Shown here piece by piece: positions 43,656 to 45,215 of a stretch of DNA of 53,150 nt. Where the stretch lies: the IMG/VR virus record IMGVR_UViG_2537562195_000010; one strand, given 5' to 3'. Within the stretch, counting starts at the first letter, position 1; each line of letters opens with the position of its first letter. The notes below the pieces were generated by a model. That model was not told where the DNA came from, did no database searches, and saw only the letters and a list, made by a program, of their open reading frames with translations. The stretch is from a virus (lineage: Duplodnaviria > Heunggongvirae > Uroviricota > Caudoviricetes). The translations under genes and the position numbers were made by a program.

Positions 43656-43853
43656 GAATTATCCTATAAATCATTCTTTAGTGTTTAGTTGTTAATTATT
43701 TTTAATCTGTCTTGTCAGAAAGTGCGAAATCGATCTTGCATTTACATTTTGTTACGTAATATAAATTGAACTAAGAATTTGTATTAAAATATTTTAATTT
43801 TTGTTCATGACATCTGAATGCATGAATAGTTCAGTTTAAATAAGGATTAAATC

Positions 43854-45017
43854 ATGAAAAAAATGACAGTGGCACTTTCTGCTGTAGCAGTTGCAGTGAT
43901 GTTTGCTGCGGGGGCGCAGGCAGCAGAAGTTTATAATAAAGATGGTAATAAACTGGATCTTTACGGGCGTGCAACCGCTCTGCATTACTTCTCGGATGAT
44001 AAAGGTAATGACGGAGATCAGACTTATGCCCGTCTCGGCTTTAAAGGCGAAACGCAGATTAATGATCAACTGACCGGATTTGGTCAGTGGGAATACCAGT
44101 TCTCTGGTAACAAAACGGAATCTGAAGGTTCCGCGGGAAATAAAACCCGTCTGGCATTTGCAGGTCTGAGATTTGCTGATGTTGGTAGCATTGATTACGG
44201 ACGTAACTACGGTATTGCTTACGATGTCGGATCATATACTGACGTACTGCCAGAGTTTGGTGGTGATGGCTGGACTCAGACCGATAACTTTATGACTGCC
44301 CGAACTTCCGGAGTTCTGACTTACCGTAATACAGATTTCTTTGGGCTGGTTGATGGTCTGAATTTTGCGGCGCAGTATCAGGGCAAAAATGAGCGCGATG
44401 ACCTCCAGAAGGCCAATGGTGATGGGTATGGTTTCTCAGCCAGCTATGAGTTTGATGGTTTTGGTTTTGTGGCTGCGTATACCAAGTCAGATCGTACCAA
44501 TAAGCAGGTTCAGGGACTGAATGGTAGCAAAACTATTGAAATCAAAGATCCTTTAACTGGGGATGTGACTGAAAAAGAAGTGGTCGTTGATTCCGGCAGC
44601 GTTGCAAAAGGTAAACATGCTGAATTCTGGGGAACTGGTCTTAAATATGATGCCAATAACCTGTATCTGGCAGCAGTGTATTCAGAAACCCAGAATATGA
44701 CGACCTTTGGTGATCAAGGTGTTGCGGATAAAGCTCAGAATATCGAAGCCGTTGTTCAGTATCAGTTTGATTTTGGTCTGCGTCCGTCTCTGGCCTACCT
44801 TCAGTCCCGAGGACAGGATGTTATGGTTGGTGGTGTGAACCATGGCGATCAGGATCTGGTTAAATATATTGATGTCGGTGCGACTTATTACTTTAACAAG
44901 AATATGTCCACCCATGTTGATTATAAAATTAACCTGATTGAGGAAAGTGAATTTACCCGGAAAGCCGGTGTTGCGACAGATAATATCGTTGCTGTGGGTA
45001 TGACTTATCAGTTCTGA
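43854..45017 (+). CDS. Outer membrane porin (OmpC/OmpF/Lc/NmpC family), phage moron
   Basis: 387 aa; signal peptide '[23 protein letters not shown]'; general-porin signatures ('[16 protein letters not shown]', C-terminal '...VAVGMTYQF'); AT-rich upstream region (43660-43850) and its own terminator; inserted between tail genes M and L. Confidence 0.9.
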
Positions 45018-45191
45018 TTATTGCTGATAAGTATAATAAATACGGGCCGTCAGCCCTTACTGGCGGCCTGTATCAATGAAAACACAGTTTTCATTGGTCA
45101 CTGCGATCAGCAATTGCCATCTGGCATGTGTTGATTTAACTTTCTGTTATTACCTTTATTGGTTTTATTTTAAATTGGACTTTTATTGTTC

Positions 45192-45215
45192 GGGGCGCGG
45201 TTGCGCCCCTTTTTT
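45192..45215 (+). terminator. Rho-independent terminator after the porin moron
   Basis: 'GGGGCGC-GGTT-GCGCCCC' followed by TTTTTT, 12 nt upstream of the L start. Confidence 0.6.

Follow-up and report, generated by a model that had tools for sequence, protein, structure and literature searches.

What does a general porin gene do between two tail genes of a lambdoid prophage, and what is the stretch of about 200 nucleotides (nt) that separates it from the next tail gene? The question is raised by a Caudoviricetes sequence of 53,150 nt (IMG/VR record IMGVR_UViG_2537562195_000010; this whole stretch is referred to as the window), in which a porin gene and the sequences on either side of it have been inserted between the genes for the minor tail proteins M and L. 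Our analysis suggests that the segment is probably a self-contained two-part porin-replacement cassette, one part bringing a phage porin in and the other, a structured RNA in the 3' untranslated region (3'UTR) of the porin gene, bringing the host porins OmpC and OmpF down. The initial annotation had given the porin segment as 43660-45215, which is right to within a few bases. The parts on which the argument turns are as follows.

43656..45227, + strand: the inserted cassette, 1,572 bp, with a regulatory region, the porin gene, the 3'UTR RNA, a terminator and a likely replacement Shine-Dalgarno sequence for L
43854..45017, + strand: the porin gene, 387 residues, with a signal peptide at residues 1-23
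45039..45215, + strand: the IpeX-type structured 3'UTR RNA, within the untranslated stretch 45018-45215 that runs from the porin stop (45017) to a T-tract (45215)

The structured RNA downstream of the porin gene

The 210 nt past the porin had at first been read as a spacer followed by a terminator. The terminator stands, but the spacer does not, as the stretch holds a covarying, conserved RNA of the IpeX type. The region of about 200 nt between the porin and L evolves at a rate 0.21 times that at synonymous sites of the porin gene. An alignment of 14 distinct variants of the RNA shows three hairpins followed by an unpaired block, an AU-rich stretch and the terminator. Folding of the copy in the window gave a minimum free energy of -75.8 kcal/mol (z = -7.8). 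RNAalifold combined with explicit pair counting across the variants found 38 pairs, with 99.4% of the cells paired and 9 pairs showing compensatory double changes; when the pairing was slid along the alignment, at most 4 compensatory pairs and 36-46% of paired cells were obtained, and shuffled alignments never reached the observed values. A 59-residue open reading frame (ORF) at 45076-45255, which overlaps the RNA, was also considered and ruled out as coding, since the variants differ from one another by an indel of 13 nt and several of 1 nt.

45040..45073, + strand: hairpin H1, 14 bp, loop CCCUUA; 4 pairs changed on both sides, 99% of cells paired
45074..45096, + strand: hairpin H2, 10 bp; 4 pairs changed on both sides, 100% of cells paired
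45105..45136, + strand: hairpin H3, with a conserved base of 7 bp; 1 compensatory pair, the apical part variably present, a 13-nt indel in the loop
45141..45162, + strand: single-stranded block TTTCTGTTATTACCTTTATTGG, the best-conserved unpaired block and a putative seed against the ompC and ompF ribosome-binding sites
45141-45149, + strand: segment TTTCTGTTA, the start of the single-stranded block
45147-45156, + strand: core of the block, TTATTACCTT, invariant in the 14 variants
45192..45215, + strand: intrinsic terminator, GGGGCGC-GGTT-GCGCCCC + T6, with a 7-bp all-GC stem that is invariant across all variants

To place this RNA among known ones, a covariance model (R1) was built from the variants found between M and L only, with no sequence of the NmpC type in it. 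R1 matched directly 3' of the porin in all 49 of the 49 IMG/VR loci with an NmpC/Lc-type porin between Q and S, and 3' of several others (35-45 bits, E ~1e-7). It also matched the 3' region of nmpC in the K-12 prophage DLP12 (locus L003, 2368-2514, - strand; 38.2 bits, E ~4e-7), which the literature describes as the IpeX region. Matches of 41-55 bits were found 3' of the porins of P1-like phages, and the best match outside the M-L set, at 85 bits, lies 3' of a porin on an IS66-flanked island (L011). No match was found 3' of 80 chromosomal porins, of K-12 ompC, ompF, ompN or phoE, or of an island porin that precedes a sulfatase gene. The DLP12, L011 and P1-like copies fold to the same layout of hairpins, single-stranded block and terminator, with z scores of -5.5 to -9.1, and the block TTCTGTTAT...TTACC(C)TTTATT is common to the cassette RNA and the DLP12 IpeX region. 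Judged by fold and sequence, the 3'UTR RNA is related to the IpeX region. A BLAST comparison of the non-coding flanks with DLP12 had returned matches of 12-13 nt only and the verdict that there was no IpeX homologue, a verdict overturned by the R1 match. Scanned against Rfam, neither 43300-45500 nor the 3' region of nmpC in DLP12 matched any family at E <= 1, MicF included; IpeX itself has no Rfam model. An R1-based alignment across families was contaminated by reverse-strand hairpin matches and was left out of the pair counting.

Duplexes were predicted between the 30-nt stretch 45141-45170 and the K-12 porin leaders and ranked against 6,513 background windows. The ompF leader paired at -23..-3, across the Shine-Dalgarno sequence, with -20.3 kcal/mol (top 0.28%), and the ompC leader at -37..-9 with -21.1 kcal/mol (top 0.18%). 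The cassette's own leader gave -12.2 kcal/mol (23rd percentile) and that of nmpC -10.5 kcal/mol (42nd percentile). A second scan used 45-nt probes and 2,006 background windows. Here the ompF leader ranked in the top 0.1-1.6% and the ompC leader in the top 0.0-0.3% for all M-L variants, but phoE and ompN were mostly unremarkable (1.9-78%); MicF, taken as a control, ranked ompF at 0.0% and ompC at 19%. With DLP12 IpeX as the probe, ompC ranked at 0.0%, and the predicted duplex has 15 contiguous pairs, one of them G-U, over the ompC Shine-Dalgarno sequence (AACCUUCUGUUAUAU with AUAUAACAGAGGGUU), plus a second helix of 9 bp. The predicted pairing conflicts with accounts in which IpeX works with no evident complementarity. 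The RNA of the P1-like locus L014 gave a computed duplex of -30.3 kcal/mol with ompF and contains UUAUUUAUUACCCU, an exact 14-nt complement of the ompF leader that was read from the sequences by eye. Across about 5,400 E. coli genomes, hardly any variation is seen in the leaders of ompC and ompF. We infer that the cassette RNA may base-pair with the Shine-Dalgarno regions of ompC and ompF.

The porin, its clade and its variable loop

The other part of the cassette is a porin gene that is complete and untruncated, as the initial annotation had it: on careful alignment the protein is full length. It matches Pfam PF00267 (Porin_1) over profile positions 1-337 of 337 (E 5e-143, 477 bits), has a Sec signal peptide with the cleavage context AQA followed by AEVYNK, carries LPEFGGD in loop L3 (the PEFGG constriction motif), keeps the acidic and basic residues typical of the pore, and ends in ...TYQF. 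An arginine stands at the position of OmpC K16, and the remaining arginines of the basic ladder are kept. The best matches among solved structures are OmpC, PhoE, OmpK36/37 and OmpF (E 1e-131 to 1e-97). An AlphaFold2 model built from a 37-sequence alignment has 16 strands (predicted local distance difference test 73.4, predicted template-modelling score 0.70), with L3 at low confidence; compared by Foldseek with solved OmpC, OmpK36 and OmpF, it gave TM scores of 0.87-0.90, normalised by target, and root-mean-square deviations of 2.5-3 Å.

The NCBI annotation pipeline PGAP labels the protein 'porin OmpC', and the cut-off of the corresponding NCBIfam subfamily model (NF007841) is narrowly passed, at 504.9 against 484 bits; the cut-offs of the NCBIfam equivalog models for PhoE and OmpF are not reached. 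A neighbour-joining tree of enterobacterial porins places the cassette porin in the OmpD/NmpC/Lc group, apart from K-12 OmpC, OmpN, PhoE and OmpF, and joins the M-L proteins in one clade, whose sister is the rare IS66-flanked porin of L011. Since the protein falls in the OmpD/NmpC/Lc branch and is only 62-64% identical to the K-12 chromosomal porins OmpC, OmpF, PhoE and OmpN (63.9% to OmpC), 'OmpC' appears from these comparisons to be an annotation label and not a statement of orthology. The designation 'OmpC-family', used at the outset, thus holds at the level of superfamily and annotation but not of orthology, because the tree gives a separate clade within the OmpD/NmpC/Lc group that is found in the M-L slot only.

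Protein searches returned E. coli relatives at 78-95% identity and one from Citrobacter farmeri at 89%, followed by a drop to about 67-70%, where the NmpC/Lc/OmpD-type proteins begin; a sharp gap separates relatives at 80% or more from those at 68% or less. In all 38 of the 38 retrieved loci with a porin at least 80% identical (L004-L010, L095-L125), the gene lies between M and L with spacers of about 200 nt on either side, and its reading frame is intact in every one. Identity of the neighbouring M protein across these loci spans 47-100%, so the cassette occupies diverged tail modules, true lambda-type ones included. The arrangement differs from that in the 49 viral loci whose porin is 67-68% identical: in all 49, M and L are absent and the porin sits between Q and the holin gene, on the opposite strand, as does nmpC of DLP12 in K-12. 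In GTDB, sampled at one genome per species, no porin relative above 67% was found. Among complete E. coli genomes, 91 of 5,426 carry the full insert, and the M-L-type RNA element (at least about 73% identity) occurs in 111 of the 5,426, at 120 places, all chromosomal, with two copies in some genomes. Contigs 9, 13 and 8 of one IMG genome (IMGVR_UViG_643348545; L114, L118 and L119) each carry an M-L cassette of the 85% variant; copies can accumulate in poly-lysogens. The closest relative of the M-L clade, the L011 porin (3805-5104, 377 residues), is 77% identical in gap-free alignment columns, adjoins an IS66 fragment and lies near genes for CdiI-like and BON-domain proteins. None of the 5,426 complete E. 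coli genomes has it.

Across 14 protein variants, the ratio of non-synonymous to synonymous substitution rates (dN/dS) is 0.07 at a mean dS of 0.86. Because of this low ratio at so high a dS, the protein is maintained by selection, and we conclude that the porin is under long-term purifying selection. Variation is concentrated in extracellular loops, one of them hypervariable.

44493..44615, + strand: hypervariable extracellular loop L5, residues 214-254, with about 30 extra residues relative to OmpC (the gap in the alignment with OmpC)

In the AlphaFold2 model, L5 lies between strands 203-213 and 255-267 and forms an extra protruding hairpin at 224-245. Among the M-L variants its length differs by up to about 29 residues, with block replacements, and its dN/dS is 0.24 as against 0.06 for the remaining gene; L6 has an insertion in one variant. 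As far as the sequences go, such loop-concentrated variation is the pattern expected of a surface-exposed protein selected by phages or by immunity.

That last choice admits a different account, in which the porin is cargo that serves host fitness and has no role in phage exclusion: a pore of different size, selectivity or antigenicity would aid life in the bovine or human gut, for instance in the face of bile, antibiotics or antibody, and the RNA would prevent overload of outer-membrane assembly by lowering OmpC and OmpF. The carriers are mainly cattle, beef and human isolates of Shiga toxin-producing E. coli (STEC), with others from mouse, pig, deer and wastewater; the hypervariable L5 and L6 fit immune as well as phage selection, and the conserved constriction residues of L3 would imply a working diffusion pore. 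Castillo-Keller and colleagues are also said to have found IpeX, in 2006, as a suppressor of the envelope stress caused by a mutant OmpC. This account leaves unexplained, however, why the porin clade occurs in phages only and why three phage contexts carry the same RNA. It is compatible with porin replacement and does not exclude it; taken as the whole explanation, we regard it as rather unlikely.

Insertion into the tail operon and predicted expression of the cassette

In phage BP-4795 the stop codon of M overlaps the start codon of L (TGATG), and homology between BP-4795 and the window ends exactly past the M stop and restarts exactly at the L ATG. About 150 lambdoid and Stx phage records likewise align to the flanks of the query only (25% coverage), and M and L abut in them. 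Since these related records match the flanks alone and have M and L overlapping, 43656-45227 is a true insertion. GC content is 34-47% within the insert and 55-63% in the flanks. The cassette is thus absent where the flanking genes of its relatives adjoin, deviates in composition and has its own terminator, all of them features of a moron. The comparison with BP-4795, the GC profile and the GC-rich stem followed by T6 confirm the initial description: the porin gene is a moron inserted between M and L, flanked by AT-rich sequence and closed off by a strong terminator.

43314..43655, + strand: minor tail protein M gene, left flank (PF05939 Phage_min_tail, E 3e-33); stop TGA at 43653-43655
45218..45224, + strand: GGGCGGA, the likely replacement Shine-Dalgarno sequence for L; GGG[C/T]GGA is kept in most variants
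45228..45926, + strand: minor tail protein L gene, right flank (PF05100, E 2e-92; TIGR01600, 378.6 bits); ATG at 45228

Where M and L overlap, the Shine-Dalgarno sequence of L sits inside the end of M. The right end of the cassette is therefore likely to give L a new ribosome-binding site, replacing the one lost when the overlap was split. A junction in L010 (4663-4800) bears on how the cassette moves. In this lambda-type tail module, two remnants lie between the M stop and the cassette: first 82 nt that are a decayed copy of the 5' end of L (77% identity), then 32 nt from the 3' end of an M gene of the HK97 type (87.5%). Read as a scar, the junction shows that the cassette moves as a unit and was imported by recombination via M/L homology.

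The region upstream of the porin has conserved elements of its own.

43656..43853, + strand: AT-rich upstream region (inferred promoter and 5'UTR), with conserved blocks across 17 variants
43741..43760, + strand: predicted OmpR-box-like site TTTACATTTTGTTACGTAAT, two half-sites, overlapping a 17-mer common to ompC
43766..43795, + strand: candidate weak sigma-70 promoter, TTGAAC (43766-43771), an 18-nt spacer and TATTTT (43790-43795), 5 bases past the OmpR-like box
43803-43814, + strand: 5'UTR block GTTCATGACATC, resembling the nmpC and P1-like porin leaders
43822-43833, + strand: 5'UTR block ATGAATAGTTCA, resembling the same leaders
43841..43846, + strand: Shine-Dalgarno sequence of the porin gene, TAAGGA, 7 nt ahead of the ATG and kept in all variants

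The rate of evolution over these 198 nt is 0.39 times that at synonymous sites of the porin gene. An exact 17-nt match (43735-43751, CTTGCATTTACATTTTG; E 2.5e-5 in a small search) links them to the region upstream of K-12 ompC, at a position that we take to be the C1 OmpR site of Harlocker et al. (1995). The TTTACAT within the OmpR-box-like site is kept in nearly all cassette variants, and both hexamer regions of the candidate promoter are conserved. The 17-mer of the ompC C1 region, the conserved weak promoter and the recurring leader blocks together suggest that transcription of the porin in the lysogen may depend on OmpR. Strong purifying selection and the conserved upstream elements likewise argue for expression of the porin. 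Moreover, because the porin is co-oriented with the late operon, unlike nmpC and lc, Q-modified RNA polymerase should traverse the porin gene and its terminator after induction.

Over 43300-45400 the window shows 100% identity to E. coli strain 4 (NZ_CP045209); the prophage of that strain adjoins ompW and is equipped with int, xis, cI/cro and Q and with genes for lysis, head and tail. The window stems from another, closely related strain: in its J gene (48135-51821), 26 positions differ from strain 4, and one of the differences is an in-frame amber codon, TAG, at 48864-48866, where strain 4 has CAG. The C-terminal 290 residues of J are equally distant from lambda J, which binds LamB (307.0 bits), and from gpJ 713 of A8, which binds OmpC (307.5 bits). 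Elsewhere in the window, TolA-like and TonB-like cargo, which had been listed alongside the porin, was also found. A 142-residue lipoprotein, 'TolA' in the annotation of strain 4, is encoded at 18206-18634, downstream of Q, a methyltransferase gene and genes for tRNA-Ile and tRNA-Arg, the position of the stx genes in Stx phages; a 108-residue lipoprotein of the 'TonB family protein' type is encoded at 28874-29200, between the lysis genes and terminase. A Hok/Gef-family toxin gene lies downstream of J (52020-52160), and the early region of the strain 4 prophage has a second gene of this family (hokD) and a split RelE/ParE toxin.

Probable porin replacement and its known analogues

In the mechanism that we propose, an intact general porin of a phage-restricted clade, probably made from its own weak OmpR-responsive promoter, would enter the outer membrane of the lysogen; late Q-antiterminated transcription would also read through the porin during lytic growth. 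The 3'UTR of the porin mRNA, stabilised by three hairpins, with a U-rich block left exposed and a terminator at its end, would pair with the Shine-Dalgarno regions of ompC and ompF and lower their translation. Host OmpC and OmpF, which are receptors for many phages and colicins, would be replaced by a porin with differing and diversifying surface loops, above all L5. Permeability would be retained, and other phages, perhaps including the phage's own kin, would be excluded; exclusion of phages and colicins is the probable pay-off. The new ribosome-binding site of L at the right end of the cassette would let expression of the tail genes continue. An NmpC-type prophage porin is expressed in a lysogen of strain LF82 (PMC9928086).

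Several points count against this reading, and two further explanations draw on them. The first group concerns expression. A strict scan for sigma-70 consensus promoters found none on the + strand upstream of the porin, the candidate promoter scores 8/12, under the threshold of the scanner, and the literature searched holds no expression data on the cassette. AT-rich insertions are frequently silenced by H-NS. From the amber codon in J, moreover, the prophage in the window may be tail-defective although its cassette is intact, and the benefit in the lytic phase would then not apply to it. Taken together with the very AT-rich upstream region, the missing consensus promoter and the decay of the prophage could mean that the cassette is a silent passenger, H-NS-silenced or promoter-less, that hitch-hikes at a permissive site in the tail operon. 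A dN/dS of 0.07 at a dS of 0.86 is incompatible with a long-silent gene, however, both non-coding flanks are constrained, and the frame is intact in all 38 loci; because the cassette runs in the same direction as the late operon, an intact prophage is bound to transcribe it at least upon induction. We consider a silent passenger very unlikely.

The second group concerns the pairing. With the 45-nt stretch, the cassette's own leader gave -22.7 kcal/mol (top 0.6%), which puts discrimination between self and non-self in question. The duplex joins 45139-45181 (UUUUAAAUUGGACU, the distal single-stranded stretch) to 43827-43872 (AGUUCAGUUUAAA) and could be an intra-mRNA 5'-3' interaction, a means of autoregulation, or chance. 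AU-rich sequences readily yield long predicted duplexes. The original IpeX paper reportedly found no obvious complementarity to ompC, and the published view is that IpeX does not act by complementarity alone. R1 E-values are roughly calibrated, and the R1 score stems in part from generic hairpins and the terminator. Finally, a porin is encoded in 42 of 50,697 deposited phage genomes, in every case at 68% identity or less and never one of the M-L clade.

With these points in hand, the 180 nt downstream of the porin gene might be nothing but a cis-acting 3'UTR, its hairpins guarding the mRNA from 3' exonucleases and the last one terminating transcription, and the match to ompC and ompF would then come from AU-richness or from shared ancestry of the leaders. 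Stable 3' hairpins are a common mRNA-stabilising device, and the strength of the own-leader duplex and the promiscuous pairing of AU-rich sequences are in keeping with this account. Yet it is the unpaired block, with its invariant core, that is most conserved, and not the stems alone; DLP12 IpeX has this block too, and published work reports that IpeX represses OmpC and OmpF in trans (PMC5069750, PMC12197685). In addition, every phage variant places the leaders of ompF and ompC in the top 0.0-1.6%, which for the most part does not hold for phoE and ompN, and the MicF control behaved as expected. A role in cis alone is in our view unlikely, and we retain porin replacement by the two parts of the cassette as the probable function.

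More tentatively, it is possible that porin genes of enterobacterial phages travel in general as a two-gene 'porin-swap' unit, in which an RNA of the IpeX family serves as a MicF-like antisense regulator of ompC and ompF. The sites occupied by such units would be the Q-S interval of lambdoid phages, their M-L junction and the P1-like plasmid prophages; co-orientation at the M-L junction would extend receptor depletion to the lytic programme, and L5 would be diversifying in an arms race. If so, the mechanism of IpeX would be explained by plain base-pairing, with 15 contiguous pairs over the ompC Shine-Dalgarno sequence for DLP12 and 13-20 ompF pairs for the M-L and P1-like RNAs. Porins govern the entry of phages, colicins and antibiotics into enterobacterial cells. 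A cassette that installs its own porin and silences the two major ones of the host would alter phage susceptibility, antibiotic permeability and surface antigenicity at once, and about 2% of complete E. coli genomes have the cassette, many of these being STEC associated with cattle. The IpeX-type RNA is a general companion of phage-borne porins and not a curiosity of DLP12; with no Rfam model, the family stands unannotated in thousands of genomes. The RNA half of the cassette offers a concrete base-pairing model for IpeX that can be tested by mutation.

The nearest known analogues are, as initially proposed, the phage porins Lc of PA-2 and NmpC of DLP12, which like the cassette porin are general porin morons on lambdoid phages or prophages and belong to the OmpD/NmpC/Lc branch. 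The Lc porin of PA-2 is known for replacing host porins. The IpeX RNA of NmpC and Lc has two or three hairpins, a U-rich single-stranded block with UUCUGUUAU...UUACC(C)UUUAUU and a terminator, as does the cassette RNA, and the effect described in the two reports cited above is that OmpC and OmpF are replaced and repressed. The differences are considerable. The cassette porin is 67.7% (BLAST) to 72.5% (gap-free columns) identical to NmpC/Lc and forms a separate monophyletic clade; it occupies the M-L slot on the strand of the late operon, whereas Lc and NmpC lie between Q and holin on the opposite strand; the non-coding flanks cannot be aligned by BLAST; L5 of the cassette porin is much longer and hypervariable; and the predicted complementarity to ompF is longer in the cassette RNA than in DLP12 IpeX. 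The initial remark that the porin is 'not novel in kind' is thus fair in so far as Lc/NmpC-type analogues are known, but the literature, searched for porin genes lying among the tail genes of prophages and for the protein under its RefSeq accession, did not yield the M-L clade, its position and orientation or the spread of the IpeX-type RNA. New here are the porin clade bound to the M-L slot, its strong purifying selection combined with a hypervariable L5, and an IpeX-family RNA with an exposed block that matches the ribosome-binding sites of ompC and ompF.

The porins of P1-like plasmid prophages (in phages phi456 and JL22, for example; L014, L183 and L184) are likewise followed by a 3'UTR RNA of the same type (6269-6402 in L014; 6160-6296 in L183 and L184). 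They belong to another phage type, however, at a locus near ssb and a lysozyme gene, are 73% identical to the cassette porin and cluster with the NmpC-like group. With the chromosomal porins OmpC, OmpD, OmpN, OmpF and PhoE the cassette porin shares the Pfam family, the fold, the L3 constriction motif, the signal peptide and the C-terminal phenylalanine, but besides its lower identity it has a short L4 and a long L5 relative to OmpC and lies at no chromosomal porin locus.

MicF (Rfam RF00033) resembles the cassette RNA in having the ompF-antisense core UUAUUACC followed by a terminator, and the predicted target of the cassette RNA on the ompF leader overlaps the MicF site. The only weak chromosomal matches of R1 (E 0.002-0.05) were to MicF upstream of chromosomal ompC genes, at L035 3592-3686 (- strand), at the equivalent places in about 20 chromosomal ompC loci and at L176 1794-1874, with 16.4 bits for K-12 micF; the identity of these as MicF was confirmed with Rfam. 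The cross-match apparently stems from the common core and the terminator, and the likeness hints at convergence on, or a common origin with, an ompF antisense sequence. MicF is nonetheless a free-standing gene divergent from ompC, with no 5' hairpin array, whereas the cassette RNA is the 3'UTR of a porin gene; and in the duplex test MicF was specific for ompF, whereas the cassette RNA matches both the ompC and the ompF leader and reaches no Rfam threshold.

Finally, the cassette is comparable to the classical lambdoid morons lom and bor, as defined by Hendrix and Juhala, in that it is extra material between genes adjacent in relatives, deviates in composition, has its own terminator and is tolerated within the late operon. 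Unlike them, it splits a translationally overlapped gene pair and appears to supply a substitute ribosome-binding site downstream, and it carries a putative regulatory RNA as a second functional part.

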